The notes beneath the pieces were generated by a model that saw only the letters and a list, made by a program, of their open reading frames with translations, ran no database searches and was not told the origin of the DNA. A DNA stretch of 64,000 bases from Thermodesulfobacteriota bacterium (GTDB lineage: Bacteria; Desulfobacterota_D; UBA1144; Nemesobacterales; UBA2774), in assembly GCA_041753155.1 (NCBI GenBank), contig JBGSVA010000041.1, forward strand, positions 7,583 through 71,582, given 5' to 3'. Of this stretch, positions 1 to 51,532 are shown piece after piece (the first letter of the stretch is position 1; every line of letters starts with the position of its first letter). The position numbers and the translations under genes are program-made.

Positions 1-1
1 C

Positions 2-715
2 GAGCACCTGAGCTTCCGTGAACGATTTTTATACTCTGTGAGCGAGCTCTTTATGGCCGGCGACAGGTACATCAGGAGGATGGACCCTTCCGGGAGCATG
101 GACATGCGGCCGGACTTTACACTCTTGAGCCCTTTTTATTACGGTTTCCTCCATTATAAAACGCAGATGGAGAACAGCGTAACGTTCATCGAAAAACAGC
201 TCTGGGACCCGGAGCTGGGCATGATAATGAGGTACCTCCCGTATTACAGGGATTTCTCGACTCACGTCCACGCGGGCAACGGCCCCTGGCTCCAATACAC
301 TGCCGTGCTCGCCCAATATCACTATTGGAACGGGAACACGAAACGCGGCGACGAGATAATGGCCATAATCGACTCGTTCAGGAGCGATACGGGGGAGATC
401 CCGGAACACCTCTCGACGCTCAGGAGGTTCGAGGAATTCATGGAGAGGGAATGGAAGACCGGGATCGATTTCCGGAAGGAGTTCTATAAGGACATTCTTC
501 TCGACGACGTGGACTTTAACAAAATCCTCGAAGAAGCGAATAACATGCACCACTCATACGAAGAGTGCAGAAAGCGGCGCATGGTCAGAAAAGATAAAAA
601 GTCAGGCGGCGGATACATCCAGTTCGCCGCGCCTCTCATGTGGTCGCATGTGGAATACGCGAGAGCACTCCTCGTAAGGGCCGGGGACTGGTGGAAGGTC
701 CACGGGGAAGAATAA
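2..715 (+). CDS. Glycoside hydrolase family 15 (glucoamylase-like), C-terminal portion. The reading frame is open from the window edge, so the CDS is 5'-truncated.
   Basis: The frame has no stop from position 2. The translation carries GH15 C-terminal signatures (GNGPWLQYTAVLAQY, PLMWSHVEYARAL). Confidence 0.65.
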   Translation, partial: EHLSFRERFLYSVSELFMAGDRYIRRMDPSGSMDMRPDFTLLSPFYYGFLHYKTQMENSVTFIEKQLWDPELGMIMRYLPYYRDFSTHVHAGNGPWLQYTAVLAQYHYWNGNTKRGDEIMAIIDSFRSDTGEIPEHLSTLRRFEEFMEREWKTGIDFRKEFYKDILLDDVDFNKILEEANNMHHSYEECRKRRMVRKDKKSGGGYIQFAAPLMWSHVEYARALLVRAGDWWKVHGEE

Positions 716-809
716 TCCGGCGCCCGTTAAATCCCGGCAATATAAAAACAAACGAATCCGCGTGTCACATTAAAGCGTATACTCCTATTAGTGCCGGAGC
801 ACTCGTACA

Positions 810-1601
810 ATGATAATCCGTCAATACATGCGGCAGCCCGCTCTCAAGATTCTTTGGACTTTTGTTTTGTCGCTAGTCATATGGACGGTTTCGGAGGCCT
901 CTTCCTCCGCGTTCGATAATTCACACGGCGCTTATGGAGAGGTGCTGTCCCTCTACGTCAGGGACGGCCTCGTAGATTACAGAGGACTTAAATCCGATCC
1001 CGGCGGTCTCGAGGCGTACCTTGAATCGACAGCGAAAGTAACCAGGAAGGATTTCGAGAGCTGGCCCGAGGATGAACAACTCGCCTTTCTCATCAACATC
1101 TACAACGCCCGGACGCTCGAGCTCATAGTCGATAATTACCCTGTAAAAAGTATCAGGGATATCGGAAGCAGCGGTAAAGGGCCGTGGGATGAGCCCGTTG
1201 TCAAACTCTTCGGCGAAACTATAACTCTTAACGCTCTTGAGAACTGGATGATACGCAGGAATTACAAAGACCCCAGGATACACTTCGCCCTCGTCTGCGC
1301 GGCAGTAGGGTGCCCTCCCCTTCTCGGTGAGCCGTACCTCGGGGGCAGTCTCGACAATCAGCTCGAAGCGCGGACAAAGAAATTCCTGTCCGATCCGGGA
1401 AAAAACTCGATCGACAGGGAAAATAAAATACTACGCCTCTCTCCGATATTCGAATGGTATGCGGAAGATTTCAAGGCTGAGGCGGGCTCGGTCCCGGGGT
1501 ATTTGAAAAAATATTACGGAAATGAACCGTTCAAAGGATATATTATTGTATATACGGACTACGACTGGTCGCTTAACGATATCTCCGCTAAAGAGAAATA
1601 G
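810..1601 (+). CDS. DUF547 domain protein
   Basis: The translation has LAFLINIYNA ... HFALVCAAVGCPPL, typical of the DUF547 family. The N-terminus is hydrophobic and signal-like. Confidence 0.65.
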   Translation: MIIRQYMRQPALKILWTFVLSLVIWTVSEASSSAFDNSHGAYGEVLSLYVRDGLVDYRGLKSDPGGLEAYLESTAKVTRKDFESWPEDEQLAFLINIYNARTLELIVDNYPVKSIRDIGSSGKGPWDEPVVKLFGETITLNALENWMIRRNYKDPRIHFALVCAAVGCPPLLGEPYLGGSLDNQLEARTKKFLSDPGKNSIDRENKILRLSPIFEWYAEDFKAEAGSVPGYLKKYYGNEPFKGYIIVYTDYDWSLNDISAKEK

Positions 1602-1671
1602 ACGCTCGATGTCGGATTTTAATTGAGAGCGCGGATAAAGACACGGCATTAATCCCGCCTGAGGAGACGAG

Positions 1672-4053
1672 ATGTTCGGATTGATAAAAAAATATACGAG
1701 GTGGCTCCACACCCAGTGGCCTGCGGGAATAGTGGAGAAGCTGCCGGAGGTAAAAGAGGACTACTCGACCAACGTCCCCGGTCTCTACATAGCCGGAGAC
1801 CTCACGGGGATACCGCTCCTGAAATTCTCCTCCGATTCGGGCGCCAGGGCTGTGATGAACATACTCATGGACGAGGGGTTCCTCAAAAGCCGTGAGGCGC
1901 TCAGGGATGGCGGCATACTCGACCTCGTGATAGTCGGGGCCGGTGTCTCGGGAATGGCGGCCGCGCTCGAAGCGAAGAGAAACGGGCTCAGGTTCGAGAT
2001 ACTCGAAGCGACCGAGCCCTTTTCAACCATCGTAAATTTCCCGAGAGGGAAGCCCATATACACATACCCGACGGACATGGTCCCTGCCGGAGACCTCCAG
2101 TTCACGAAGGACGTAAAAGAGCCCCTTGTCGAGGAGATAAAGGAAGAGACGCTCGGGAGAGGCATACAGCCGAAAATCCAGAGGGTCGAGAAGGTCGTCA
2201 ACAGGGGCGGTTTCATCGAAGTAGTAATCCCCAATGCCGAGAGCCTAAAGGCGCTGCGGGTGATAGTGGGCATCGGTCGCTCCGGCAACTTCAGGATGCT
2301 CGGCGTGCCCGGTGAGGACAAGGACAAGGTCTTCAACAGGCTCCACGACCCCAAGGACTACGAGGGCAAGAACGTCCTCGTCGTGGGCGGGGGGGACAGC
2401 GCTCTCGAAACGTCGATAGCGATAGCGAAGGCGGGCGGGAACGTAACCCATTCATACAGGAACGAGGAGTTTTCCCGTCCCAAGCCCGAGAACGTGGAAT
2501 ACATAAAGATGCTGATGGCAGACCCGATGGCGGAAGTCTCCGTCGAAACTCCGACGTCAGAGCGCGTAACGACGAGCACGGGCGGATTCATGCCGGGAGA
2601 GCACAAGCCCGGGAAGCTCAGCCTCATGATGAAGAGCCGCGTGAAAAACATAGGGGATACAGACGTCACACTCACAGACCGCGAGGGTAAAGAGATCACT
2701 ATCCCCAACGACGCGGTCTTTACCATGATAGGGCGCGAGGCCCCGCTCGATTTTTTCAGGAGAAGCGGCGTGAGAATCAAGGGCGAGATGGGCGCCAAGT
2801 CCATAACCGCCATGGTCCTCTTCCTTCTGTTCATGACTTTCATTTACAACTGGAAGGCGGGGGGCCCGCTGACGAAACTCTTCGAGAAGAATAATTGGTT
2901 CCCGTTCAACCTGCCGGGGTTCTTCAATAGCTTCGGAGAATCATTCACCGGCATGGTGAACGACCCTTCGACCCTCGTCGGGACACTTTCGATAACATTG
3001 AGCGAGCCCGGATTCTATTATTCGCTTCTGTATACGACCATAATCATAATCTTCGCCATTCTCCGCATAAGGAGGAGAAAGACGCCCTACATTACCGTAC
3101 AGACGATCTCTCTCGCAACGTTCCAGCTGATACCGTTATTTCTCCTGCCGTACATACTGCTCCCCTATCTCGGACACAACGGATTCTTCGACTCGGGGTT
3201 CATGAAGTCGGTCGGCGACGCACTCTTTCCCGCGGCGAATTACGGGCACGGCCGGGAGTACTGGCGGGCGTTCGGATTCATACTGGCGTGGCCGCTCTTC
3301 GTATGGAACGTATTCAGCAGCGAGCCCCTCTGGACCTGGCTGATTATCAGCCTGATTCAGACCTTTGTGCTGATCCCGCTCATAATTTACTTCTGGGGCA
3401 AGGGGGCGTACTGCGGGTGGATATGCTCTTGCGGGGCGATGGCCGAGACACTCGGCGACACGCAGCGCCACAAGATGCCCCACGGGGCCAGGTGGAACAG
3501 GCTCAACATGGTGGGGCAGATAATACTGGCGATCGCATTCATAATACTGATAGCCCGGGTATTGAGCTGGGGGTTTCCGAGCTCCGCGTTCGGACAATGG
3601 GTCTACAAATTCTACGAAGGAGCGTTTTACGGCTGGAAGCCCTTCGGCATCGAGCTTAACTACAAGTACGTAGTCGACCTCGTACTCGCCGGCATAGTCG
3701 GGTACGGGCTCTATTTCTGGTACAGCGGCAGGGTATGGTGCAGGTTCATGTGCCCGCTCGCCGCGCTTATGCACATATACGCGAGGTTCAGCCGCTTCGG
3801 GATCTTAGCCGACAAGAAGAAATGCATATCGTGCAACGTATGCACGTCTGTATGCCACCAGGGGATAGACATAATGAACTTCGCGAACAAGGGCCTCCCG
3901 ATGAGCGACCCCGAATGCGTCCGGTGCAGCGCGTGTGTCCAGTCCTGCCCCACGGGCGTGCTCATGTTCGGGCAGATAGACAGGAAGAGCGGAAGGGTTA
4001 TAAAAATCGACTCCCTCGCCGCCTCTCCCGTTCTTATGAGAGAAGGGAAATGA
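1672..4053 (+). CDS. Fusion protein. An FAD/NAD(P)-binding pyridine nucleotide-disulfide oxidoreductase domain is followed by a polytopic membrane domain and a NapH/NosR-type 2x[4Fe-4S] ferredoxin module.
   Basis: GAGGAG RBS 5 nt upstream. Two GxGxxG dinucleotide folds (LVIVGAGVSGMAAA, VLVVGGGDSALE). Long hydrophobic stretches. CGWICSCG motif plus CISCNVCTSVC and CVRCSACVQSCP ferredoxin motifs. Confidence 0.65.
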   Translation: MFGLIKKYTRWLHTQWPAGIVEKLPEVKEDYSTNVPGLYIAGDLTGIPLLKFSSDSGARAVMNILMDEGFLKSREALRDGGILDLVIVGAGVSGMAAALEAKRNGLRFEILEATEPFSTIVNFPRGKPIYTYPTDMVPAGDLQFTKDVKEPLVEEIKEETLGRGIQPKIQRVEKVVNRGGFIEVVIPNAESLKALRVIVGIGRSGNFRMLGVPGEDKDKVFNRLHDPKDYEGKNVLVVGGGDSALETSIAIAKAGGNVTHSYRNEEFSRPKPENVEYIKMLMADPMAEVSVETPTSERVTTSTGGFMPGEHKPGKLSLMMKSRVKNIGDTDVTLTDREGKEITIPNDAVFTMIGREAPLDFFRRSGVRIKGEMGAKSITAMVLFLLFMTFIYNWKAGGPLTKLFEKNNWFPFNLPGFFNSFGESFTGMVNDPSTLVGTLSITLSEPGFYYSLLYTTIIIIFAILRIRRRKTPYITVQTISLATFQLIPLFLLPYILLPYLGHNGFFDSGFMKSVGDALFPAANYGHGREYWRAFGFILAWPLFVWNVFSSEPLWTWLIISLIQTFVLIPLIIYFWGKGAYCGWICSCGAMAETLGDTQRHKMPHGARWNRLNMVGQIILAIAFIILIARVLSWGFPSSAFGQWVYKFYEGAFYGWKPFGIELNYKYVVDLVLAGIVGYGLYFWYSGRVWCRFMCPLAALMHIYARFSRFGILADKKKCISCNVCTSVCHQGIDIMNFANKGLPMSDPECVRCSACVQSCPTGVLMFGQIDRKSGRVIKIDSLAASPVLMREGK

Positions 4054-4221
4054 GTCAAGGATTCACGGCCCGCTCCCGGCTCCGAGATCCAGCAGATCCC
4101 CACGAAAACCCCCGGTAAAAAATCTGGAGCACGTCTCATGAACGTGCGGGAGAATAACTTGCGACTTTCACACGCCGCGAGTGTACGGGTACTATGTTCA
4201 TATCCCGGCGCAGGTAAGCCC

Positions 4222-4923
4222 ATGACTCCCAGAATCCTCGTTATAATCCCCGCACTTAATGAAGAGATGTCAATCGGAAAAGTGATCGCCGATATCCCGC
4301 GTGATCTCGTGAGCGAGGTAGTCGTAACGGATAACGGCTCGACCGACAGGACGGCCGGGGCTGCAGCGGGCGCGGGTGCGACCGTGCTAACGGAAAAGAG
4401 GCGCGGATACGGCTACGCGTGCACGAAGGGCATAGAATACGCGCTCTCAAAACCCGCGGGCGAAAGGCCCGACATCGTCGTATTCCTCGACGGCGATTAC
4501 TCCGACTACCCCGGGGAGATGCGCTCACTCGTAAGACCGATTATCGAGGACGGCTTCGACATGATCATCGGCTCAAGAACATCGGGCGAGCGAGAGAGAG
4601 GGGCGCTTCTCCCTCAGGCCCTGTTCGGCAACGCGCTCGCGACGACGCTAATAAAATGGCTCTACGGGGTCAGCTTCACGGACCTCGGCCCTTTCCGCGC
4701 GGTGAGGTTCGATAAGCTCCTGGGACTCGGGATGTCGGACATGACATACGGCTGGACCGTGGAGATGCAGATAAAGGCGGCTAAACAAGGTCTCAGGTGC
4801 GGGGAGGCACCCGTAAGCTACAGGAAGCGTATAGGTGTCTCGAAGGTAACGGGGACCCTCGGGGGCACGGTCAAGGCCGGCTATAAAATACTTTGGACGA
4901 TATTTAAAAACATGAGGGACTGA
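4222..4923 (+). CDS. Glycosyltransferase family 2 (DPM1-like polyprenol-phosphate glycosyltransferase). The ORF could start at 4138, but the ATG at 4222 gives the typical short N-terminus.
   Basis: ILVIIPALNEE...VVVTDNGSTDRT...FLDGDYSD motifs are seen in the translation. Confidence 0.7.
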   Translation: MTPRILVIIPALNEEMSIGKVIADIPRDLVSEVVVTDNGSTDRTAGAAAGAGATVLTEKRRGYGYACTKGIEYALSKPAGERPDIVVFLDGDYSDYPGEMRSLVRPIIEDGFDMIIGSRTSGERERGALLPQALFGNALATTLIKWLYGVSFTDLGPFRAVRFDKLLGLGMSDMTYGWTVEMQIKAAKQGLRCGEAPVSYRKRIGVSKVTGTLGGTVKAGYKILWTIFKNMRD

Positions 4924-4978
4924 AACGGGCGGGCGAAAGTTTCCTTTCGGAAGTGACAATAGCGGATGCAGGTTTCAA

Positions 4979-6088
4979 TCAATAAACAAAATCGACGAGG
5001 CTTCCTATGCGGAGCCACAATTTGGCGAGCGGGTTTAGTATTATATTCTCACCCGTGAACACAGCGACGCTCACGGACGCCCCTATCCTGAGCTTGTACT
5101 TATCGTGGTCGATGTTCGAGATCTTGAGCCGCACGGGGAAACGCTGAGCGAGCTGCACCCAGTTCTCCGAGTCCTGAACGACGGGAAGGAACCCCGAGGG
5201 GACCCCCTGCCCCGTGCTCACGCCCCAGTCGGTGCTTTCGACGACGGCTTTGAATATCGTCCCAGGGTATAGCGCCAGGCTTACTTCGGCTTCCTGACCC
5301 GCCTTGATCTGTCCCACGCTGTTCTCCCTGAAGTTCGCGACCACCCACCAGCTGTCGTCGTCCACGAACGTTAGCACGGGCTCTCCCGTTTTTATATAGG
5401 ACCCGACCGTAAGCTGCAGGTTGGTGATATATCCGTCGGTCGGGGCATAGAAGGTTGTCTGCGTGAGGTTATATTCGGCGGTAGCGAGCGCGGCCTCTAC
5501 TTCCTTTATAATCGCGTAATCGCCGTCGATCTTATATTCGAGGGCCTGCGTCGCCTTATCATAATCTGCCCTCGACTGATTCAATTGCGCCAGGGTCGAG
5601 TTCAGCTGTTCCGTGGCCTGGTCGAATTCGAGCCTGGCTATGTAATTTTTCTCGACGAGCGGCTCGAGGTCCCGATAACGCTGCGCCGCATAGGCGTGGT
5701 CCGCCTGGGATTTCTTCACGGCCTGCCCGGCGGCCGCTATATCGCTCTTGAGCTCGTCGATGTTCTGCCTCGTCTGGACGAGCTTCGCTCTCAACTGCTG
5801 CACCTGGTATTCGTAGGGCCTCTGGTCGAGGCTGAACAGCTTCCGGCCTTTGTCGACGTACTCGTTGTTTCTTACATAAACTTCATCTACCTGCCCGTCC
5901 ACCTGAGGCGCCACCTGGAGCACGTAGGCCTGAACGTAAGCGTCGCTCGTATAGGGCGTGTACCTGTCGAGCAGGATATAGTAGACGATCAGCAGCACGA
6001 TCAGGGAGATTATGAAAATCACCCAGAACTTCGCCGTATAGGTCAATTTGCCCGGCTTGAATCTGGAGGCGATGTCTTTAAGGTTCAT
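4979..6088 (-). CDS. HlyD-family membrane fusion protein (EmrA/AaeA-like efflux adaptor)
   Basis: N-terminal TM anchor, a long coiled-coil region and a beta-barrel C-terminus are seen. YVQAYVLQVAPQVDGQVDEVYV matches the MFP biotinyl-lipoyl-like fold. Confidence 0.8.
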   Translation of the reverse strand: MNLKDIASRFKPGKLTYTAKFWVIFIISLIVLLIVYYILLDRYTPYTSDAYVQAYVLQVAPQVDGQVDEVYVRNNEYVDKGRKLFSLDQRPYEYQVQQLRAKLVQTRQNIDELKSDIAAAGQAVKKSQADHAYAAQRYRDLEPLVEKNYIARLEFDQATEQLNSTLAQLNQSRADYDKATQALEYKIDGDYAIIKEVEAALATAEYNLTQTTFYAPTDGYITNLQLTVGSYIKTGEPVLTFVDDDSWWVVANFRENSVGQIKAGQEAEVSLALYPGTIFKAVVESTDWGVSTGQGVPSGFLPVVQDSENWVQLAQRFPVRLKISNIDHDKYKLRIGASVSVAVFTGENIILNPLAKLWLRIGSLVDFVY

Positions 6089-6153
6089 TGAATAATGGCA
6101 CCGGATACCGCGCTATAACCTGCATCGAAAAAATGGCCGATCTGTTATCAACC

Positions 6154-6558
6154 TCACCAGCCCCAGGGCCCTCCCGCCCATCCCCATAAGCCGGGCCCGA
6201 ATTCGGCCTGCTCGGCCATCATCGCGGCCTCTTCCTCTTCGTTGACGACGTTGGATTCGTACACCATCTGCTGGTATCTGTCATAAGCCGCCTGATCCCC
6301 GGTCCATATACATTGACAGTTATTCGGGTCGGTATACCAATAGAGGGGCTTGTTGTCCCTTACGCTGAACTGGATCTTGTAAGGTGTAACTGAGCTCAGC
6401 ATCTTCAGCTCCTCCGGCGTGTCAGCCGAGACGATCTGGAACCCCGCGGCGGCAAGCAATTCCTCGGTACTCTTCGCCTGCTCGCCCTGTATCGCCGCGC
6501 ATCCGCTCAAAATAAAAATCGCCGCCAATAAGGATAAAACCATTCTGACCTGTATCAT
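6154..6558 (-). CDS. Small lipoprotein, hypothetical. The likely start is MIQVRMVLSLLAAIFILSGC, which carries a lipobox.
   Basis: Signal peptide plus LSGC lipobox. The C-terminus is Trp/Gly-rich. Confidence 0.4.
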   Translation of the reverse strand: MIQVRMVLSLLAAIFILSGCAAIQGEQAKSTEELLAAAGFQIVSADTPEELKMLSSVTPYKIQFSVRDNKPLYWYTDPNNCQCIWTGDQAAYDRYQQMVYESNVVNEEEEAAMMAEQAEFGPGLWGWAGGPWGW

Positions 6559-6671
6559 AAAATCGTTCCTCCTTTCCAATCTCGCCGATCGGGCGGGGCC
6601 GGGCGCCCCGCCGCCAGACAGCGGACGATGTAAAACTAACACCTAAATCCATATAATTAAATAGCCGGCTG

Positions 6672-7937
6672 TTATTTGGAATTCGTCCTGGACCTGTTCC
6701 ACCGGAGGGCGTTCTCGAGCGTGAGACCCTGCACGGTGATGGAAAATACCACGACGACATACGTCATGAGCACTATCAGGTCCCTGTGCGGGGAATCGGT
6801 CAATGCCAGAGCGAGCGCGATCGAGACCCCACCCCTGATCCCGCTCCAGGTCATGATAAAACCGGAGAGGGAAGGGATATTCCTGAATAGTTTCAGGAAT
6901 ACGAGCGGAAGCTCGACGCTTACGTACCGCGCCCCGGTGATAAGGGGTATGGATATCAGTCCGCAGATTATATAAGGCTCCTCGAGGTCGAGCACCAGGA
7001 CCTCCAGACCGATTAGAACAAAGAGAATTGCGTTAAGCACGTCGTCGATCACTTCCCAGAGGCTCGACACATACGACCTTATGTGATCGGCGGAGCTCGG
7101 TATGAACCTTCTCCTCCTGGCCAGGAATAGACCCGCCACGACGCACGTAAGGGGAGCCGAGACTTCGAGCGTCTCGGCCAGGAGATATCCGCCCGATACA
7201 AGCGACAGTGTTAACAGCGCCACGACGATCCTGCCGTCCGCGCCCCGCTTGATTATCTCGAATATCATCCGGTGGGTGATATAACCGAGTGCGATTCCCA
7301 GGAAAAGCCCGCCCAAAGCTTCTTTCAAGAAGAACTCGCCAATATGGATAAATGACACCTGCGTTTCCCCCGATGCTATCTCTGCGAAGAGAACGAAGAG
7401 CACGACAGCGACAGCGTCGTTGAAAAGGGACTCTCCCGATATTATCGATTCAAGAGTCTTGCCGGGCTGAATGCGCCTGAAAAGCTTGAGGACGATAACC
7501 GCGTCTATGGGGGATATGATCGCGCCGAAAATGAGTGCATATATCAAAGGCAGATCCACCCCTATCGCGCCGAACACCCACCAGACTACCGCGCCCGTCA
7601 GGAAAGTGGCGATGATCATACCCAGCGTCGCCAGGTACGAGATCGTCCACTTGTATTCCCCGAGATCATCGATATTCACGCTTGAAGCCCCGGCGAATAG
7701 CAGGAAGCTCAGCATACCGTTCATGAAGAGGTGGTCGAAATCGGCCGCCTGCACAAGCTCGACCGCCCAATCCACGCTGCCGAACCCCAGATACCCGAAG
7801 GCGATTATCAGGACGGAGGACGCGAGGGACGCGAGCATTACCCCGATAGTCGTCGGGAGCTTGACGAATGCCTCGTTGACGAAACTGAAGAGAGCCGTGA
7901 GGGTTATTAGTATTGTGAATACCGCGAATAAGTTCAT
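6672..7937 (-). CDS. Na+/H+ antiporter, CPA1 (NhaP-type) family
   Basis: About 12 predicted TM helices. The layout follows a sodium/hydrogen exchanger (ATLGMIIATFLTGA ... FAEIASGE). Confidence 0.75.
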   Translation of the reverse strand: MNLFAVFTILITLTALFSFVNEAFVKLPTTIGVMLASLASSVLIIAFGYLGFGSVDWAVELVQAADFDHLFMNGMLSFLLFAGASSVNIDDLGEYKWTISYLATLGMIIATFLTGAVVWWVFGAIGVDLPLIYALIFGAIISPIDAVIVLKLFRRIQPGKTLESIISGESLFNDAVAVVLFVLFAEIASGETQVSFIHIGEFFLKEALGGLFLGIALGYITHRMIFEIIKRGADGRIVVALLTLSLVSGGYLLAETLEVSAPLTCVVAGLFLARRRRFIPSSADHIRSYVSSLWEVIDDVLNAILFVLIGLEVLVLDLEEPYIICGLISIPLITGARYVSVELPLVFLKLFRNIPSLSGFIMTWSGIRGGVSIALALALTDSPHRDLIVLMTYVVVVFSITVQGLTLENALRWNRSRTNSK

Positions 7938-8050
7938 AGAGCTCTTGTTCCGGAGACAGAACGCATGACCGGAATTCGAATCCCGATTCTAATCCGGCAT
8001 TATACAAAGTGCGGCGGTAGTTGTCCAGAAGATAACCGGCCGCAGTACCT

Positions 8051-10282
8051 CTAGGCTTTAGAAGCCGCGAGCCCGGTCCCCGGAGCCTCCTCCGCTATGT
8101 TTATCCCGCTGATCGAGACCGTTATCTTATGCAGGGAGGCAAGCACCGTATCGACGCTCGCAGCAACGAGCACGTCTTTTTCCAGGTCCTCGAGCGGGAA
8201 CTGTTTCCAGAACCCGGTCTCACGAAACTCCTGTCTGTGCTCTTGTATCTGCAGGGTTAACTGCAGCGCCGCAGGCGCCGGATCGTCTTTGGTGTAGAAT
8301 TGCCGCGAAACCCTGTCGAACAATCCGCAGAGCGCACTGTAATCGGGACCCATGTGTTCGAGGTATTTTATCAATAGCGGATTGTTTGCTTCCGAGTACA
8401 TGGTTTTTTTCAGTGTCTCGAGCTCCGCGTAGATAACTTCGAGCGACTCGATTATGTCTACGAAGTCCTCGGCGTGGAGCTTCTCGTCGCTGATGATATA
8501 CTGGGCGTCGAAAAGCAGCGAGCTGCTCGTGGGCATGGCCGCGGCGAGCGGGTTCACGAGGGATTCTATCCTGCCCTTCTCGCTCTCGTCTAACATCAGG
8601 AGCTTGCCGAATATAGTCCCGCTGATCGCTATCGCGGACGATATCTTCTTTTTGAGCTCGCGATAAGGACTGACGGGCCAGATATTGTGCAGCACGAGAA
8701 GGCCGATAGCTGACGCCATGAGCAGGGCGAACATCCTCATCATTGCGAGCGTGAGGCTTATCTCGGGCCCCGGGCTCGAGAGAAAAACGTAGGGGAGCAT
8801 TAAACCCGCCTGGAGACCTGAGTAAGCTATTCTCTGGCTGCCGCTGGCGACATAGGCGGAGACAAAAGTCCCCAACGCGAAAATAAGTATGAGCAATAAG
8901 AAATGAGGTATGAGCGAGATTGCAAATAGACCTGTTATGCCGTAGAGGAGACCTGCGCCCACACCTACGATAGCGAGCTTACCCCGGAGGTGGGCCTGGC
9001 CGGTATTCGGTATAGAGCCGAAGAGCACGCCGTAAAAAGAGGCCTGATAACCGCCCGGCAGTTTCAGTAGAAGCTCGCCGAAGAGAAGAAGCATGATCAC
9101 TATCACTGATTTTACGGACTGGCGGGCCGATTCCCTGGTGATTTGAGGCAGCCATCCGGATTTTATGCTCTCCACAGTGGGAGACCTGGTAACCCTGTCA
9201 CTCACGAGCTTATCATATTCGCCGCTGTTGACCAGATTCCACGTCCTGCCTGCTTTACCGAGAATTTCGAGCGTGTCTTCGAACAAGGGAAGTATGGCTC
9301 CGAAAGCGAGCAGGTCCTCGAAATAGTCCTGGTCTTTCCCTTCCGCCGAATGCATGGCTTCATAGAGATTCTTCAGCTCCCCGATTTTTGTTCCGAGATT
9401 GTCCTGATACGACCCGGCAGAACGGACTTCGACAATAGCTGAAGCCAGGTCTGTAAAACCCTCAGACAATAAAGCGAACAGACCGTTTAACTCGTCCGAA
9501 ACATTTTTATCCTCCAGGCATTTGTGCCCGGCTCTCATAAACCCGTCCAGAACGTCGAGCTTGATATAAATGCTCTTGGCATAGGCGACGAGCATAAGCA
9601 CAGGCTCCGCGTGGAAGCTGCCGCCCCTCGCCTCGCGCTCGGTACGCCTGACGAGATTGACCAGGTTATTGAAAACATCCATGGACGCAGATTCGAATTT
9701 CCCGTCCTTCGCTTCTTGCGTTTCAGTGCGGATATAGGACTCGAACTTCGCGGCATAATCTTTATATACTGTGGACAGTGTAAGACAGAGGGCTCCGCCG
9801 CTCCTGTGTGGCCATATTATCTCGTCGACGAGCCACGAGACAGCCGCGGCGACGAATAGCTGAACCATGTAATTTTCTACGGAGGCCGTTGTCTGGGCCA
9901 CCGTGCCGAAAACCGCGACGAACATGCTCATGGCTGTCAGGATAGCGCTCAGCACCGAGGCGATGGGGTATTTACCGATGAAAGTTATACAGCCGAATAT
10001 CCATACCGCCGCAAGTATGAGGTAAACCGGAATCGAATCGAGAAAATAGTAGATTATGAATAACGAATAGATGCCGCTCACGAGGCACCCTATCAGCGAC
10101 TGGACGCCGACCTCGAACGTCTTACCGTGATAGCCTGCCATAATCATGTAAAGTATCACGGGGGCTAGAAATCCCGACGGGAGATGGAAGAAATTGCAGA
10201 TAAGGGCCGCGATTACGCCGCCGAGCGTAATCTTGAGCGCGATCTTGACGCGGAACACGGAGAGATAATGTTTAAGGTCCAT
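8051..10282 (-). CDS. FUSC-family (fusaric acid resistance / AaeB-like) efflux membrane protein, paralogue 1
   Basis: Two hydrophobic 6-TM blocks are separated by a long cytoplasmic domain. The architecture and length match the FUSC family. Confidence 0.7.
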   Translation of the reverse strand: MDLKHYLSVFRVKIALKITLGGVIAALICNFFHLPSGFLAPVILYMIMAGYHGKTFEVGVQSLIGCLVSGIYSLFIIYYFLDSIPVYLILAAVWIFGCITFIGKYPIASVLSAILTAMSMFVAVFGTVAQTTASVENYMVQLFVAAAVSWLVDEIIWPHRSGGALCLTLSTVYKDYAAKFESYIRTETQEAKDGKFESASMDVFNNLVNLVRRTEREARGGSFHAEPVLMLVAYAKSIYIKLDVLDGFMRAGHKCLEDKNVSDELNGLFALLSEGFTDLASAIVEVRSAGSYQDNLGTKIGELKNLYEAMHSAEGKDQDYFEDLLAFGAILPLFEDTLEILGKAGRTWNLVNSGEYDKLVSDRVTRSPTVESIKSGWLPQITRESARQSVKSVIVIMLLLFGELLLKLPGGYQASFYGVLFGSIPNTGQAHLRGKLAIVGVGAGLLYGITGLFAISLIPHFLLLILIFALGTFVSAYVASGSQRIAYSGLQAGLMLPYVFLSSPGPEISLTLAMMRMFALLMASAIGLLVLHNIWPVSPYRELKKKISSAIAISGTIFGKLLMLDESEKGRIESLVNPLAAAMPTSSSLLFDAQYIISDEKLHAEDFVDIIESLEVIYAELETLKKTMYSEANNPLLIKYLEHMGPDYSALCGLFDRVSRQFYTKDDPAPAALQLTLQIQEHRQEFRETGFWKQFPLEDLEKDVLVAASVDTVLASLHKITVSISGINIAEEAPGTGLAASKA

Positions 10283-10329
10283 TGATTATCTACGGGGCGG
10301 CAGAACGGTCATTCATTTCCAGATCCGTT

Positions 10330-12579
10330 TCAGCGCGCCCCGGCGAATTTGTAATCATTAGCGGATCGATCGCTTTCATCGATTTCATTCACCGCGTGCG
10401 AGATCGTGGCAATTGATCCCAGTATCCCGTCTATCCCGGTAAGGACGAGAGAAAACCTTTCGAGCTCCTCGCTCCCGTATGCAAACGTCGCCCTCCTGGA
10501 CCTGAATTCGTCTCTGGCTTTGCGAATTTCCTCGACGACCGCGACCGTGTCCTGCGAGCCTGCAATTTTACCCGGACTCACGAGCTTCGATGCCGCATCG
10601 GCGAAGCAATCCGTCATTTTCTCGTAATGTCCGCCCATGTACTCCATATACTTGTCGATCAGACTCTGGTCAGGCCCCTCATATATAGCGCGCTTGAGTG
10701 ATTCCGACTCGACGTATATCTTTTCGAGGGACTCGATGATCGTAAGGTACTGGCCTGCGTGCTTATAATCGCCGAACAGTATATATCCCGCATCTTTAAG
10801 AAGCGCGGAGCTCGAGGGGAGCTTCGACTCCAGGGAATCTATTTCCCGGCCGAGCTCCTCCATGTCTCCGGCCCTGCGTCCCAGAATAAGATTAAGTATA
10901 AGACCGGAGTCGGAGATCGCTGCCGACAATTTTTGTTTCAATAACTTTATCGGGTCCTGAGGCCATATGAAATGAAGGACAAATAAAACGACCAGGCAGC
11001 CCAGTATGATCCCGAGGAACCTGTCGAGAGCCAGGTTCAATGACACGGGAGGTCCGTTCGTTATAAGAAGCGACAGGGGCAGGACCAGACCCGCCTGTAC
11101 CCCCGCATAAGAAACCCTTTCGCTCCCGAGCGCAACGTAAGTCGCGAGGAAAAGGCCGAGAAAGAGGAGCATCACGAGTATCGGCATGTGGGGGGACTGG
11201 CTCAATATGTATAGACCCGCGAGTCCGTATAATCCGCCGAAGAGACACCCGAGAAACCTCAGCCTGGCTTTCAGGTGGGACATCCCCAGATTAGCCTGGT
11301 AGGAGATAACGAGGATCGTAATAATCGCCGAAAGCCCCACACCGGACGGAAGCGAGAGATACAGATACCCGAACACTATGACCATCACAGCCAAACCCGT
11401 CTTTATCCCTTTCTTGAGACTCTCGATATTGAGTTTAAATTCCCGCCGTGCAATATATGACCCATCTTTCGGCGGGGCTGATAGTGGTCGAGGGGATTCA
11501 CTGGAAACGATATGGGACTGAATCGCCCTCCATGCCGCCGAGATCTCATCAAGGTCTTCAGCCGCATTTTTCAGGAGACTGATAAAAGAACCGAGCTCGA
11601 GGACTTCCTCATATTCCCAGTCCGAGAAAGCCGCTTCCTTCCTCATGGCGATATATTTTTCTTCGAGTGCGCGCAGCCTTTCATGTATTTCGCCTCCCCC
11701 GTATTCGAAGGAGCTCTTTCTCAGGATCGAATCTTCGAGGTCGGAAAAGGTGCTCTCCGTGGCTTCGAGAACTCCGTAGATTCCCGACGACAGCTCGCCT
11801 TCGGATAAAAACGGCGCGTCCTTATGCAGCATTACGTCGATCGATTCGAGCTTTACGAAGAGGCTCTTCGAATGCGCGATTAATTTAATGTACAGGTCGC
11901 CGGGAAAGAGCCCTTCTCTCTCTTCTTTTTCCGCACGCGTTATCAGAGAGGAGATGCTGCTAATAGTGTCGAGCGTAAGCCTATTCCTGACCGGCCCGGG
12001 GCTCTCGCCTTCCTTCGCTTTCGAAATGAGGGCGTGAACGGTATCCCTGAACCCGCCTGCGACTCTGGACATGCTCTCCTTTATGGATGTCAATGTTTTC
12101 GGAGGCCATAGTAAATAGTCGATCAGCCAGACGACGAGGACGCCCAACGCTATCTGTATTATCCAGTCGACGGTCAAAGCCTCCGCGGCGCCGATGGAAA
12201 CGAGCCCGGTGTACATCACGCCCGCGGTCGCTACCGAGACCATCAGCGACGCGTATGAAAACTTTTGTTCGACGTAAAGGTATGTGCTGAGACACAGCCA
12301 GAAAAAGATGGTAAACAGATACAAGGGCAGCATGTTGTGAAAAATGTATACCGATATAAGGCCTATTACGGCGCCTAAAGAGCGCCCGAGCCATCTCTCG
12401 ATCCCCTGCTCGAAGGTATTGTCCCTGTGCACGGTCATCATGATGTGCACGGTCATAACCGCGAAATAGGGCGCCGGTATATGGAGGAACGCGCTCAGTA
12501 TCACACAGAGAGACCCCGCAAGGGCGACCTTGAGCGAATGCCTTACCCTGTAGGATTTGATATGCTCCTCGATTGTCAT
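10330..12579 (-). CDS. FUSC-family efflux membrane protein, paralogue 2, in tandem with paralogue 1
   Basis: Same architecture as paralogue 1 and alignable by eye (HSLKVALAGSL.. versus KIALKITLGGV..). Confidence 0.7.
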   Translation of the reverse strand: MTIEEHIKSYRVRHSLKVALAGSLCVILSAFLHIPAPYFAVMTVHIMMTVHRDNTFEQGIERWLGRSLGAVIGLISVYIFHNMLPLYLFTIFFWLCLSTYLYVEQKFSYASLMVSVATAGVMYTGLVSIGAAEALTVDWIIQIALGVLVVWLIDYLLWPPKTLTSIKESMSRVAGGFRDTVHALISKAKEGESPGPVRNRLTLDTISSISSLITRAEKEEREGLFPGDLYIKLIAHSKSLFVKLESIDVMLHKDAPFLSEGELSSGIYGVLEATESTFSDLEDSILRKSSFEYGGGEIHERLRALEEKYIAMRKEAAFSDWEYEEVLELGSFISLLKNAAEDLDEISAAWRAIQSHIVSSESPRPLSAPPKDGSYIARREFKLNIESLKKGIKTGLAVMVIVFGYLYLSLPSGVGLSAIITILVISYQANLGMSHLKARLRFLGCLFGGLYGLAGLYILSQSPHMPILVMLLFLGLFLATYVALGSERVSYAGVQAGLVLPLSLLITNGPPVSLNLALDRFLGIILGCLVVLFVLHFIWPQDPIKLLKQKLSAAISDSGLILNLILGRRAGDMEELGREIDSLESKLPSSSALLKDAGYILFGDYKHAGQYLTIIESLEKIYVESESLKRAIYEGPDQSLIDKYMEYMGGHYEKMTDCFADAASKLVSPGKIAGSQDTVAVVEEIRKARDEFRSRRATFAYGSEELERFSLVLTGIDGILGSIATISHAVNEIDESDRSANDYKFAGAR

Positions 12580-41249: not shown

Positions 41250-42446
41250 TCAACGGTCCGAACCGGATACGCCCTGAGCAATGTGTCTCAGTAAAGAAAG
41301 AGACTTGTAAATCAAAGAGACCGGTAATTTTGACACATGCCAGGAATCGGGAGCGGTTATTGCGTCTCTGCATCCTCGGCATATAAAATCCGCAGGAGCC
41401 TCTTCGATCCCGTATATCCAGCGCCTCATCTTTGCAAATTCCGGCCCGGTAAGGACCTCGTCCACTGTTTGTCTGTTAAGATCGCCTACTATGTAGGCAT
41501 TATTGTAGTCCTGACAGCAGAGGAAACACTCCCCCTTCGGGTTGATATGCAGGTGCTGTAGGGGGCGGGAACCTAATAACGAACAGCCCCGCAGCTTTTT
41601 ATGCGGGTTATCTGTCTTCAACCCGAGACTGAGATAACCTGCCCGGTTAGTCAAAATAGAATATTTAACATTGAAATATGATTCCGAGAAGTGTTCCGCT
41701 ATCTCTCTGAAGCTGCGGATATGGTCTTCATCCCCCATGCCCAGCACCGCTATATCCATATATTCAGCAATTTTCTTGTCTTTAATATAATCGAGGTTCC
41801 TGATAACCGTACCGACGTGGTCACCTCCGCGGTCTTTCTTATATCGTTCGCGATCCATTGTCGAAAGATTTACGGAAAGATAACCCAGCCCGCCCATGTC
41901 AATGATCTCGTCCGACCTCGATGGCGTAAGACCGGTCGCGTTCGTGTTCACCGCAGGACGGAAGCCGTGTTTCTTAATAAGTCTTATCTGATCCACAAAC
42001 CGCTTGTCGGCTGTAGGCTCGTTGTAGCTGATCATGAAAACGAGCTCCACGGTATTGCGGTAAACCGACAGCTGCCTCAATATATCTTCATAAAACTCGA
42101 TGGGCATAAAATATTCTTCTCTCGGATTTATCGAAACGGGACAGAAATAACACGCCTGATTGCATACCGTATTCGCTTCGATCGATACGAATTTAAGATA
42201 AAAGCGTTTTGACAATTCCTCATTGCTTATATGCGGGATTATCCACCCCTCACTCTCAAGGAGATGTTTTAAATCCGGGGACAAAGAATCCACAGAACGT
42301 TTTCCCGATGCCATAGCCCTCAATTCCCCGTATCCCAGGTCATTAGGCAGGATAGTACGGTTTGTCAAAGGGTTATAGATACGGTCCCGATGTAAATTCA
42401 GATAAGGTTCCGCAATCGACCTCTTACTCGCCTCTTCTCCATCCAT
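41250..42446 (-). CDS. Radical SAM enzyme with a C-terminal SPASM/twitch Cys cluster and a ~95-aa N-terminal extension
   Basis: CNQACYFC (CX3CX2C). The C-terminus has CSLLGS...ECFLCC...CRGC. GGAGGAG RBS. Confidence 0.75.
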   Translation of the reverse strand: MDGEEASKRSIAEPYLNLHRDRIYNPLTNRTILPNDLGYGELRAMASGKRSVDSLSPDLKHLLESEGWIIPHISNEELSKRFYLKFVSIEANTVCNQACYFCPVSINPREEYFMPIEFYEDILRQLSVYRNTVELVFMISYNEPTADKRFVDQIRLIKKHGFRPAVNTNATGLTPSRSDEIIDMGGLGYLSVNLSTMDRERYKKDRGGDHVGTVIRNLDYIKDKKIAEYMDIAVLGMGDEDHIRSFREIAEHFSESYFNVKYSILTNRAGYLSLGLKTDNPHKKLRGCSLLGSRPLQHLHINPKGECFLCCQDYNNAYIVGDLNRQTVDEVLTGPEFAKMRRWIYGIEEAPADFICRGCRDAITAPDSWHVSKLPVSLIYKSLSLLRHIAQGVSGSDR

Positions 42447-42562
42447 TAACTTATTAATCTCTCCTCCATATATATAGTTTTTACATAATGCCGTTCACTT
42501 TAATTACGACATCACCTACTTTATCCACACCACTGGTATACGCGAAAGTTAAAGCCTCATTT

Positions 42563-43384
42563 TTATCTAAACAGTGCATCCCTCACCCTAAACACGATAG
42601 GCGGTACGAATAATGCGACTGCATCTTTTAATTTTTGCGCCCTTTCGGCTTTCCTCAGCGTCTGCCCGGGTTTCAGTTTAAATAAGGTAGTATGATCTTC
42701 GAGCCCTATTTTTATCTCCTCCTCCGGTCTGCCGTTCGTGTAATAGTAGAGCGCGAGGGATTTCCTGCTTCCGCCGTTGGGGCAGTTTACAGGAGTAGGG
42801 TTGCCGTGGTACGAAAAATCCGTTGTAGAAAACACGACTGCCGTATTGTATGCGGGTACAACCATTCTGTGACACACTTTCATTTCCCTGTCCCAGAGTT
42901 CGAGCTGTCCGCCGTTTTCGTCCGTCCACCCTTTATTCAGATAAATGAGAAGATTGAGCCTCCTGTCGAGTCTCATCTTAGGGTGCCTGTTAAAATCTGC
43001 GTGTATGTTGAGAAACCCTCCGTGCTTCAGCTCGTGCAGCCCGCCGCCGAAAAAGTGAGGGTCGGGGACGAGGCCGTCTATGCCCGTCATCCCTTCCAGG
43101 AAATCTATAAACGGTTTTGAATTCAGGAAATGGAGGAACAATGTTGTGCGTGGGCCGAAATGGTCTTCGCCGATACTTGCAAGCTTGACTTCATGCTCAT
43201 TATCGTACTCCAGCTTCATCCGAGACCTGCTCAAATCGGGAAACTCATCAAGCACTGCGTCGAGTATCTCTTCATTAAAAAGACCCTCTATTACGATGTG
43301 GGGAAAAGGAGGATTGTTTTGGTATTCATCCGCCTTTTCCTTTCCAAGTCCGCCGAGATCGGTCTTTAACCAGTGCATATACAC
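42563..43384 (-). CDS. 2-oxoglutarate/Fe(II)-dependent oxygenase (prolyl-hydroxylase-like fold)
   Basis: HxD...H facial triad candidates (NIHADFNRH ... SYHGN). Confidence 0.55.
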   Translation of the reverse strand: MYMHWLKTDLGGLGKEKADEYQNNPPFPHIVIEGLFNEEILDAVLDEFPDLSRSRMKLEYDNEHEVKLASIGEDHFGPRTTLFLHFLNSKPFIDFLEGMTGIDGLVPDPHFFGGGLHELKHGGFLNIHADFNRHPKMRLDRRLNLLIYLNKGWTDENGGQLELWDREMKVCHRMVVPAYNTAVVFSTTDFSYHGNPTPVNCPNGGSRKSLALYYYTNGRPEEEIKIGLEDHTTLFKLKPGQTLRKAERAQKLKDAVALFVPPIVFRVRDALFR

Positions 43385-43740
43385 TATTTATTTAACCTCC
43401 TGTGCCGCTTCGATTTATCATCGAAGTATTTCATCCGGATTTAGTTATTTCGTCACCGGAGCTGAAATTAATGAACTCCACTTATTTTTTTCGAAAATGC
43501 TCAACAGGATTACATTGGAGAACAAAATCACAGTATCCATCCTCTGCGGGGCTTTTGTGGTTATTTTTAAGGCCTCTCCAATATATTTTGCTAGACCAGT
43601 ATACCTTGAAAACACACTTACAATAACATGCACATACATTATTGAAGCATTATACATATATTAATGTATTCGCGCAATTATAATCTCCTACTGTGCCGGA
43701 TATATAACATGAGAATTGTCTGAGGATATATAAGCTTTTC

Positions 43741-43935
43741 TCAGCCGAGGAGGCTCGAAAAAAAACTCCTCATTTCTTGAGAGAATTGCTTTCTTGAATA
43801 ACACCTTAGGGCAATGGACTGCATTTGTTCTATCTCCATAGCGAGCTCATCGGCGCTTTTATTATAAACTTCAATAATGCTTCCGGGAATATCCCTGCGC
43901 TTGATATATGTGTACTCACATCTTTGACCTATCAT
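43741..43935 (-). CDS. Candidate small protein (64 aa) translationally coupled to the upstream sulfotransferase
   Basis: ATGA stop/start overlap with the sulfotransferase. GGAG sits 8 nt upstream of the ATG. No homology is recognised. Confidence 0.3.
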   Translation of the reverse strand: MIGQRCEYTYIKRRDIPGSIIEVYNKSADELAMEIEQMQSIALRCYSRKQFSQEMRSFFSSLLG

Positions 43936-44813
43936 TCAGAAAACTCCGGCCAAAGGGAAGTATCAATTTCCGGAAACATCTTTATCATCGCCTGGACGTC
44001 CGGTGAATAATATCTTGCAAGACGTTCTCTTTCCTCTTTCGTGATATCCGGAATTTTATGCACTATACGATTGACGGGTCTCTCGGGGTTTGCGGGCTTA
44101 TACCCGTCATCAATTCCCAGAAATCTGTACGTTCGCGAAATCTCCGTATAAATATCCAGCTTGCACTTTTCATACTGCAATATCAGAATTTGATCGCGTT
44201 CGAAAAGGGATAAGAGCCTTGAAAGAGAAAACGAGAGGGAACTTTGCGTTATTGAATCAGGAAATACCCAAAACAATTCTACCATATGATTGAGGTCGGT
44301 TCCGAGATCAAAACGCTCGGAATATACAGATGTGAATTGATTTAAATGTGAGATAAACCTATCGATAGGGTTTCTGAGAACTATGAGAATTTTAGTCTCG
44401 GGAGCGGCTCCGGCCAAATAATCCAGGGCTAACGGGTACCAGAGATAACTCGGGGACCATTCTCCGCTTATACAGTTGTCGGGGGAGGCAAAGGCCTGAC
44501 GGTAAACGGAAATATCTTCCTTACTTATCCCATGAGTGCCGAAATGGTAGAAATAAGCGAGTTCCTTTTCTTTCAGTCTGTTCTCCACCACTTGTGGATG
44601 TTCCAGGAGCAACGAATACCACCAGGTAGTGCCAGCCTTAGGACTGGCGACACCTACGAAATCAGGGCCTTTGATCTTCCAGTTATCCGGTATCCGACAG
44701 AGATCCGACGTCCTGAAAGGGCGCGTCATAGGGGTATAAGCAGGGGGTCCGCCGGATTTTCCGGTCCTCGATGTTTTATTCCAAACGCTCTTTAATAAAT
44801 TCTTCATGACCAA
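43932..44813 (-). CDS. Sulfotransferase (PAPS-dependent, Sulfotransfer_3-like)
   Basis: 5'-PSB motif PKAGTTW and 3'-PB motif RNPIDR. Confidence 0.75.
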   Translation of the reverse strand: MVMKNLLKSVWNKTSRTGKSGGPPAYTPMTRPFRTSDLCRIPDNWKIKGPDFVGVASPKAGTTWWYSLLLEHPQVVENRLKEKELAYFYHFGTHGISKEDISVYRQAFASPDNCISGEWSPSYLWYPLALDYLAGAAPETKILIVLRNPIDRFISHLNQFTSVYSERFDLGTDLNHMVELFWVFPDSITQSSLSFSLSRLLSLFERDQILILQYEKCKLDIYTEISRTYRFLGIDDGYKPANPERPVNRIVHKIPDITKEERERLARYYSPDVQAMIKMFPEIDTSLWPEFSE

Positions 44814-44955
44814 TATCCGATTACCGGGAAATAACCTCGATCAAGTCTTCTAAATCGAAATTCATTGCAGCTTCATTTAGGTTCATGTAATTCTTATCGA
44901 ACATTTATCTCCACCCATTCGGTGGTGTAAAAAGCCCAATTTCTCATCTTTCACG

Positions 44956-45801: not shown

Positions 45802-45870
45802 AATTGAATTTTACTATATTCGGAGTGAGGCTGATACCTTCAAATACTAAGGAGATGAATCCCAGCCTGC

Positions 45871-50085: not shown

Positions 50086-50185
50086 TTGTCTCCGGTGACT
50101 GCTCTAACGATTATCAGATGTTACCAGCAGGCGTCGAAATTTAAACCAATTAAGTATTATATTCAACCGTTCTCCGAATCGTTTT

Positions 50186-51073: not shown

Positions 51074-51209
51074 CCCGGGAATCTAGTTTAACAGATACCG
51101 TATAAACCTGTCTCATTCGATTGATGATAACCTGGCTCTAAATCGAAAAAACAAGTAACTAATATTATCTACAAGCCAGCCGCATCCGATCACAATCGAT
51201 GAATAATTG

Positions 51210-51412: not shown

Positions 51413-51532
51413 AAAAGACGCAACTCTATCCCGCATAGATACCGGGACACCTCGATGATTACAGTCGACGTGAGCATATTAATTGGAGCCTGATAGAGGC
51501 CTATCGTTATATCTTTCTACAAAAGTTTTCAC

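Follow-up and report, generated by a model that had tools for sequence, protein, structure and literature searches.

A conserved fusion of a circularly permuted flavoprotein with a NapH/NosR-like iron-sulfur membrane module, a candidate NAD(P)H-driven electron-input enzyme

NapH/NosR-type membrane modules are widespread and their mechanism is poorly understood, with no role yet assigned to their Cys motifs (PMC5928378). A 64,000-nt stretch of DNA from a Thermodesulfobacteriota bacterium (GenBank assembly GCA_041753155.1, contig JBGSVA010000041.1, positions 7,583 to 71,582 of the forward strand; hereafter, the window) encodes a module of this type joined, in a single chain, to a flavoprotein. 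An original prediction, made before any database search, held that this fusion would wire cytoplasmic NAD(P)H through flavin adenine dinucleotide (FAD) and iron-sulfur (Fe-S) centers into the membrane. The question raised by the locus is whether such a protein is real and, if so, where its electrons would go. Our results favor a self-contained, membrane-anchored enzyme that would pass electrons from NAD(P)H via FAD and Fe-S clusters into the membrane and that belongs to a conserved, uncharacterized family; we put the probability of this reading at roughly 60%. The fusion offers a natural, single-chain NapH/NosR-like module with a built-in donor, and its chemistry could be tested with NAD(P)H as the sole substrate.

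The open reading frame of the fusion (Table 1) was recovered exactly as predicted, and every motif that had been listed for it was found in its place. Among 5.8 billion proteins searched, there were more than 100 full-length homologs of about 750-820 aa, which aligned colinearly at 66-95% identity over about 94-100% (mostly 100%) of the query and carry generic database names ('NAD(P)-binding domain-containing protein', 'thioredoxin reductase/ferredoxin', 'NosR/NirI…', and 'polyferredoxin'). In a scan of one genome per species, relatives were present in 362 genomes, spread over about ten phyla; in the best 80 of these, they were 58-95% identical to the query and came from Thermodesulfobacteriota/Dadabacteria, Latescibacterota, Gemmatimonadota, Planctomycetota, Acidobacteriota, Verrucomicrobiota, Krumholzibacteriota, Calditrichaceae, and Chlorobi. 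Among 50%-identity representatives, 527 clusters matched at E <= 1e-30, and the full-length architecture was kept down to 29-30% identity (P0266 and P0234). The prediction had warned of a frameshift or chimera near position ~2750. None was found there, and the junction between the two halves (residues 345-400) was colinear and conserved in all 30 family members inspected, with an AlphaFold confidence of 82-94 across it. An identical protein sequence is also carried by a 156 kb NCBI contig from a metagenome-assembled genome. Given the full-length, colinear homologs, the fusion is a conserved feature of a family rather than an assembly artefact. This family keeps ~60% identity between phyla and spans at least 362 species, mostly of uncultured lineages, and since conservation is strong over so many species, its function is probably important to its hosts.

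What, then, is the N-terminal half (residues 1-372)? Pfam placed Pyr_redox_3 on residues 86-369 (E 6e-29) and also returned Pyr_redox_2 (E 1.2e-19), so the assignment as a flavoprotein, which the prediction had left open to refutation by such a search, stands, and both of the proposed Rossmann dinucleotide motifs (GAGVSG and GGGDSA) are present. YpdA/Bdr ranked first among NCBIfam models (TIGR04018), with 121-124 bits against a cut-off of 339.9 and without the colinear order of that family, and thioredoxin reductase (TrxR; TIGR01292) reached 60 bits against 343. Bdr was also the best PDB sequence match (E 1e-18), and Foldseek ranked the Bdr/YpdA structures 7apr, 7a7b, and 7a76 highest (E ~1e-16, TM scores of 0.64-0.66), followed by TrxRs and TrxR-type ferredoxin-NADP+ reductases (FNRs), in keeping with a two-domain FAD/NADPH fold like that of TrxR. 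The flavoprotein and membrane domain assignments are thus backed by profile searches, PDB sequence search, and Foldseek on a confident model. As for the label of pyridine nucleotide-disulfide oxidoreductase, the fold was borne out and the disulfide chemistry was not, since residues 1-580 contain no Cys; the redox-active CxxC of TrxR is therefore absent, and a TrxR-type disulfide reductase was rejected.

Bdr itself lacks the CxxC of TrxR and shares the fold of residues 1-372. Unlike Bdr/YpdA, the fusion is circularly permuted, tethered to the membrane, and joined to Fe-S domains, and where the Bdr segment 'iiGgGpcG' pairs with 'ivGaGvsG' of the query, the Cys of the GGGPCG motif is replaced by Ser. 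A TrxR fold without a redox-active disulfide is likewise found in TrxR-type FNRs (3lzw, 2zbw, 3ab1, 5ygq, and 6gas), whose flavin exchanges single electrons with an Fe-S protein. Less similar to the fusion in sequence than Bdr, these enzymes are nonetheless its best functional analogy for the N-terminal half; since the redox-active disulfide is missing, the flavin would be expected to act as it does in them. They differ in being soluble and in acting on free ferredoxin or flavodoxin, whereas the 'ferredoxin' of the fusion lies in the same chain and is anchored in the membrane. Following the second Rossmann motif, VTHSYRNEEFSR resembles the NADPH-binding HRRxxxR region of TrxR, so that NADPH appears the likelier donor than NADH, as the similarity to Bdr and TrxR would also suggest. 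Residues 293-309 are the sole part of the protein that is both poorly conserved and modelled with low confidence.

The prediction had set a GD-type FAD motif in this half and, ahead of the first GxGxxG, an odd extra segment, GLYIAGDLTG. The motif is indeed present; the segment is not extra. In the native order, residues 28-44 (KEDYSTNVPGLYIAGDL) pair with residues 277-293 of Bdr (KETYETNIENCYIAGVI), which hold the C-terminal FAD GD motif of Bdr, and no second GD motif was found at the usual C-terminal position of the flavoprotein domain. When residues 14-77 were moved behind residue 372, a single colinear alignment was obtained over Bdr 213-293, at 82.3 bits where the native order had scored 70.1. 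Curated models responded likewise to this reordering, YpdA climbing from 124.2 to 134.4 bits and TrxR from 64.9 to 70.1 bits, and the alignment of a lipoamide-dehydrogenase model then crossed the artificial junction. These results indicate that GLYIAGDLTG is the FAD GD motif itself, which a circular permutation has brought to the N-terminal end; the relocated segment is conserved, and the permutation shared, across the whole family. The permutation frees the C-terminal end of the flavoprotein to lead directly into the first transmembrane helix (TM1).

In the C-terminal half, Pfam found Fer4_5 in two stretches (best at residues 564-596) and 4Fe-4S dicluster families on residues 712-764, and NapH/MauN, NapH, and NosR were the NCBIfam models that ranked for residues ~537-768, all of them with scores far short of the curated cut-offs. 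For what had been proposed as a polytopic membrane domain, six TM helices were predicted in agreement by hydropathy, the positive-inside rule, and the helices of the AlphaFold model. By the same three approaches, the Cys motifs and the ferredoxin domain, whose side of the membrane the prediction had left to be checked, are cytoplasmic: in the predicted topology they share, with the RIRRRK turn, the side of the N-terminal flavoprotein, and all predicted cofactor sites of the model face the cytoplasm. Confidence was high for the full-length model (pLDDT 87.6, pTM 0.83) and for the C-terminal half alone (93.6 and 0.90). Three outside loops, ~130 residues in total, were confidently modelled and carry conserved FPF, PGFxYxLLY, and WRAxGxxLAWPL motifs; Cys, His, and Met are not conserved in them across the family alignment, nor do they contain a cofactor motif.

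All 13 Cys of the protein belong to the predicted Fe-S half: C581, C585, and C587 in motif 1, C690 and C694 in motif 2, and eight, all invariant, in the two CX2CX2CX3C [4Fe-4S] motifs that the prediction had recognized (residues 718-728 and 749-760). They were 96-100% conserved among 51 diverse members, and in a 57-member alignment 12 of the 13 were invariant and C587 was at least 90% conserved. Motif 1, originally described as similar to the CX3CP of NapH/NosR, is in almost every member CX3CXC, with the Pro replaced and a third Cys. Only one member was seen with a canonical CX3CP in motif 1 (CSSICPWG; P0129, L081:1492-3867, 41% identity). Searched alone, the membrane module matched only NosR (E 8e-7) and NapH/MauN (E 1.6e-4, 21.3 bits), and these over TM4-TM6 only. 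TM1-TM3 and their outside loops matched no curated family, and the module gave no CcoG model match at E <= 1, no PDB sequence match at E <= 10, and no Foldseek match at E <= 0.001.

How far does the likeness to NapH and NosR extend? Like NapH, the fusion is predicted to contain a four-helix core (TM3-TM6) with a cytoplasmic Cys motif after each pair of helices (behind TM4 and TM6), and to end in two cytoplasmic CX2CX2CX3C [4Fe-4S] motifs, without heme. Of the two CX3CP motifs of NapH, however, the fusion has one, CRFMCP in motif 2. Scores were 53.4 bits against 213.05 for NapH/MauN (TIGR02163) and 36.6 against 234 for PRK09477. The co-occurrence with nap or nos genes that the prediction had pointed to was not found either: we saw no nap (including napG/napA), nos, or respiratory genes in the window to 20 kb or among the immediate neighbors in a sample of 80 loci, taken from the best 80 of the 362 genomes. 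Unlike NapH, the fusion has two additional N-terminal TM helices and a ~130-residue outside cap matching no family, and a built-in NAD(P)H flavoprotein takes the place of the partners NapG and NapF. With NosR/NirI and RdhC (PceC) it shares six TM helices and two Cys motifs, and with NosR, to whose curated model the membrane module alone is closest, also the two [4Fe-4S] motifs. Those proteins are NapH-like with an outside FMN-binding domain, whereas the fusion has no FMN_bind Pfam match, its flavin would be FAD, bound by a Rossmann domain in the cytoplasm and so across the membrane from theirs, it lies in no nos or rdh context, and it scored 33.1 bits against 1000 with the NosR model. The resemblance proposed for CGWICSCG therefore holds and membership in the NapH or NosR families does not. 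Orthology to NapH, NosR, YpdA, and CcoG was rejected, since scores fell below the curated cut-offs and defining features were missing.

From these parts we propose the following path. The cytoplasmic TrxR/YpdA-fold domain, permuted and Cys-free, would bind FAD and oxidize NAD(P)H, and its flavin, like that of TrxR-type FNRs, would hand electrons on one at a time to the pair of [4Fe-4S] clusters in the same chain. Next to these clusters, on the cytoplasmic side of the NapH/NosR-like bundle, would lie a five-Cys site (CX3CXC plus CX3CP). The electrons would exit at this bundle, and the acceptor would be membrane quinone, so that the protein would work as a heme-free NAD(P)H:quinone reductase. 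In its own complex, NapH is considered to be the subunit that binds quinol/quinone (PMC8238504, PMC5928378), and since the fusion has no outside cofactor site and is often encoded alone, quinone is by this analogy the most likely and most economical acceptor. Likewise, because the outside loops lack conserved Cys and His, there is no obvious outside cofactor and a diffusible lipid acceptor is favored. The fusion stands alone in 45 of the 80 loci or in housekeeping contexts, as expected of a self-sufficient enzyme. If it reduces quinone, it would be an unrecognized entry point into the respiratory chains of these lineages. The wiring foreseen by the original prediction is thus consistent with the predicted cytoplasmic placement of its parts; the wiring itself, with cofactor loading, the direction of flow, and the acceptor, is deduced from motifs and homology.

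Table 1. Features of the fusion gene and its flanking genes. Positions are those of the window; TM, transmembrane helix.
Feature	Residues	Position (nt)	Strand	Basis or remark
Whole fusion gene		1672..4053	+	793 aa, ATG start; permuted FAD/NAD(P)H flavoprotein, six-TM NapH/NosR-like module, and ferredoxin domain with two predicted [4Fe-4S] clusters
Shine-Dalgarno-like GAGGAGA		1661..1667	+	5 nt ahead of the ATG of the fusion gene; read from sequence
Relocated C-terminal FAD-domain segment (strand, GD motif, helix)	14-77	1711..1902	+	Bdr alignment, permuted-sequence scores, family-wide conservation
GD motif GLYIAGDLTG	37-46	1780-1809	+	G42 invariant
FAD Rossmann motif GxGxxG, GAGVSG	89-94	1936..1953	+	Pfam, PDB search, conservation; G89, G91, and G94 invariant
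NAD(P)H Rossmann motif GGGDSA, then VTHSYRNEEFSR	239-244	2386..2403	+	Pfam, PDB search, conservation
Variable insertion in NAD(P)H domain	293-309	2548..2598	+	pLDDT <50, poorly conserved
TM1, cytoplasm to outside	375-395	2794..2856	+	Hydropathy, positive-inside rule, AlphaFold
TM2 and TM3, linked by cytoplasmic RIRRRK turn	446-468 and 472-502	3007..3177	+	Hydropathy, positive-inside rule, AlphaFold
TM4	554-575	3331..3396	+	Hydropathy, positive-inside rule, AlphaFold
Cys motif 1, CGWICSCG (C581, C585, C587), predicted cytoplasmic	581-588	3412..3435	+	Pfam, conservation; CX3CXC variant of NapH CX3CP
TM5	613-634	3508..3573	+	Hydropathy, positive-inside rule, AlphaFold
TM6	664-684	3661..3723	+	Hydropathy, positive-inside rule, AlphaFold
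Cys motif 2, CRFMCP (C690, C694), predicted cytoplasmic	690-695	3739..3756	+	Conservation; canonical CX3CP
Two CX2CX2CX3C [4Fe-4S] motifs of predicted cytoplasmic ferredoxin domain, CISCNVCTSVC and CVRCSACVQSCP	718-728 and 749-760	3823..3951	+	Pfam, PDB search, conservation
DUF547 gene, candidate exported partner		810..1601	+	Pfam E 4.5e-23; signal peptide; invariant H158, C163, C168, P169 (LVCAAxxCP)
GT2 glycosyltransferase, polyprenyl-phosphate sugar transferase-like		4138..4923	+	Pfam, NCBIfam; homologs start at M29 (nt 4222)

What do the neighboring genes add about the fate of the electrons? No neighbor was universal across the 80 loci, and the commonest neighbor families reached 19-20 of 80, in counts that ignore shared ancestry. 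The DUF547 gene that had been noted just upstream of the fusion was confirmed by its Pfam match (Table 1). In profile hidden Markov model searches, DUF547 was found in 15 loci, 14 of them with the gene within 400 bp, and DUF3179 in 20, with 17 within 400 bp, almost always as the next gene upstream and in the same orientation. No locus had both: 35 carried one or the other, and 45 neither. In Dadabacteria-type loci DUF547 precedes the fusion, and in Planctomycetota it is found on either side; in a 35%-identity subfamily of the fusion, it lies immediately downstream, overlapping the fusion stop codon, and is followed by DUF2064. Proteins of both partner families begin with a signal or lipoprotein leader and have a conserved Cys motif, which in DUF3179 is CPLT. 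Neither DUF547 nor DUF3179 had PDB relatives by sequence, and a homolog search with DUF547 gave only close relatives from the same clade. In loci with neither partner, the upstream genes are heterogeneous, and distant members of the family sit in scpA-scpB-rluB housekeeping strings or beside unrelated genes. The recurrent and mutually exclusive pairing suggests that, where DUF547 or DUF3179 adjoins, the electrons probably also serve exported thiol/selenol chemistry at extracytoplasmic Cys or selenocysteine (Sec) sites. For both domains, this pairing is a first functional lead, toward extracytoplasmic redox chemistry at a Cys/Sec site.

Several points weigh against the path proposed here. No quinone site is identifiable from the sequence of the fusion protein; the role of CX3CP is not established even in NapH, NosR, and PceC (PMC5928378); and the similarity to NapH and NosR is weak, far below curated cut-offs. 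Bdr, the closest flavoprotein relative, reduces a low-molecular-weight disulfide and not an Fe-S protein. The DUF547/DUF3179 association is seen in under half of the 80 loci and is confounded by shared ancestry within phyla, and the binding of FAD and Fe-S clusters and the direction of electron flow again draw on motifs and homology.

The partner genes also allow an alternative, which we consider unlikely, in which the main role of the fusion would be a dedicated supply of reducing power to exported Cys/Sec proteins, independent of DsbD/CcdA. Electrons from NAD(P)H would pass through the membrane module, perhaps by way of a bound quinone, to DUF547 or DUF3179 proteins docked on the conserved outside cap. 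The fusion and its partners would then form an NAD(P)H-driven system that keeps exported Cys/Sec proteins reduced, an Fe-S/flavin alternative to the thiol relays DsbD and CcdA in which electrons cross the membrane through a NapH-like module without heme or an outside cofactor domain; taken jointly, these claims are tentative and improbable to the same degree. The adjacency of either partner in 35 of 80 loci, always to the exclusion of the other, fits such a system, as do the three arrangements of DUF547 described above, the export leaders and Cys motifs, and the in-frame UGA at the Cys position of some DUF3179 neighbors, DUF3179 being a selenoprotein family (PMC9312934). In plants, DUF547 is fused to glutaredoxin in class IV glutaredoxins (PMC13621322). 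An exported DUF255 thioredoxin-like/DsbD-N-like protein in Latescibacterota loci, read by eye only, and an extracytoplasmic function (ECF) sigma/RskA anti-sigma pair upstream in Dadabacteria loci point the same way. Against it, 45 of the loci have neither partner nearby, distant members are encoded in scpAB-rluB housekeeping operons, the outside loops lack conserved Cys, His, or Met and any cofactor motif, so that no electron path across the membrane is visible, and DUF547 and DUF3179 are domains without an assigned function or a solved relative.

We regard as quite improbable a function like that of CcoG. CcoG, a Fer4_5-superfamily membrane protein that has two [4Fe-4S] clusters on the cytoplasmic side, must obtain its electrons from elsewhere. 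In the fusion, the clusters and the five-Cys site would reduce Cu(II) or Fe(III) at the inner membrane face, with the fused flavoprotein as electron source, and the CX3CXC created by the extra Cys could serve as a metal-binding site. Genes for VIT1, ferritin, or CusB/CzcB-type efflux lie near some loci and an HlyD-type gene lies 0.9 kb downstream in the window, but genes for efflux adaptors are common, so that their proximity (to the fusion in 17 of the 80 loci) is likely a coincidence, and no copper chaperone or P-type ATPase was seen among the neighbors. The membrane module matched NosR and NapH and, at E <= 1, no CcoG model; Fer4_18, presumably the CcoG-type Pfam family, reached 18.1 bits against a cut-off of 27. 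CcoG is documented to reduce Cu(II) in the cytoplasm (Marckmann 2019, as cited in PMC8456105), and the CcoG/FixG/RdxA cupric reductases act on the cytoplasmic side (PMC8456105); the fusion differs from them in having no CcoG model match, no Ig-like C-terminal domain, and no copper-handling context.

The chances are slimmer still that electrons flow in reverse, from quinol through the NapH-like module and the Fe-S clusters to the flavin and on to NAD(P)+ or, as in Bdr/YpdA, a low-molecular-weight disulfide. Although Bdr/YpdA is the best match in sequence and structure and NapH has been described as a quinol-oxidizing subunit (PMC5928378, PMC8238504), electron transfer from quinol to NAD(P)+ runs strongly uphill in a protein that lacks an energy-coupling module, the NAD(P)H Rossmann motif is intact, so that no second source of electrons is needed, and the Cys of the Bdr GGGPCG motif is Ser in the fusion (GAGVSG), whose whole flavoprotein domain is without Cys. 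Finally, an assembly chimera or frameshifted pair of adjacent genes was rejected as having practically no chance, given the colinear full-length homologs, the relatives in 362 genomes, the fusions down to 29% identity, the conserved junction, and the same protein on the 156 kb contig.

As an electron-input enzyme, the fusion resembles the single-chain NQR/RNF-like fusions, in which a cytoplasmic NAD-binding domain is joined to a membrane electron-transfer module (PMC8238504). Those, however, combine an NqrF-type NAD-binding domain with an NqrB/RnfD module and are always tied to flavinylated outside proteins (PMC8238504). A survey of NapH-like systems considered only those tied to outside FMN-binding domains and does not describe the present architecture (PMC8238504), and no description of it was found in the literature on NapH and thioredoxin reductase fusions and on these Pfam pairs. 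The sequences are already in databases under generic names; the family, its permutation, the five-Cys site, and the partners appear to be undescribed.

Further observations concern the partners and their surroundings. In two Latescibacterota genomes, two further, tandem DUF3179 genes (L083:4382-5953 and L082:3436-5016, both on the minus strand) each have one in-frame TGA at the conserved Cys position (AVAY-U-PL and AVAF-U-PL) and a true TAA stop; they were split by the gene caller and sit 2-4.5 kb from the fusion homolog. This pattern matches DUF3179 as the published 'UxxC/T' selenoprotein family (PMC9312934), and the genes likely encode selenoproteins. A hairpin lies 14 nt past each UGA and is kept by a G-C to A-U double change; these hairpins, similar to selenocysteine insertion sequences, were not more stable than shuffled sequence. 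Also in Latescibacterota (L016-L046), an exported protein of ~850 aa is encoded 0.6-4.5 kb upstream of the fusion, recurring near the DUF3179-fusion pair, and was read by eye, without a profile search, as having a DUF255 thioredoxin-like N-terminus and a DsbD-N-like C-terminus.

In Dadabacteria-type loci (L005:3208-7018, plus strand), the string of DUF547, the fusion, and GT2 comes after genes for a pair of ECF sigma factors, for an RskA-type anti-sigma factor, and for a 466-aa protein, an arrangement that suggests regulation by envelope stress. The 466-aa protein, upstream of DUF547, is conserved and has no Pfam domain; the window starts inside its gene, of which positions 38-715 are the 3' part. 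GT2 follows the fusion in 14 of the 80 loci, and its link to the fusion is uncertain. The GT2 of the window only weakly matches TIGR04283, the model of a GT2 family that usually accompanies DUF2064. In L088, a DUF2064 gene (9321-9893, plus strand) and a stand-alone, non-permuted Pyr_redox_3 flavoprotein of 322 aa (3698-4669, minus strand) lie beside the 35%-identity fusion homolog with its overlapping DUF547.

Promoter and terminator scans gave results at chance level, and there was no Rfam match in positions 1-6500. Downstream of the fusion operon, and convergent with it, positions 4979-12579 (minus strand) encode an HlyD-type membrane-fusion protein, a small ORF, a Na+/H+ exchanger, and two FUSC (fusaric-acid-resistance-type) exporters, of which HlyD and FUSC make an AaeAB-like efflux set; the downstream part of the window also includes ion exchangers and housekeeping genes. 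GC content drops from ~0.52-0.57 to 0.40-0.45 at positions 42000-46000, 50000-54000, and 62000-64000, and these stretches may be foreign or differently composed DNA.

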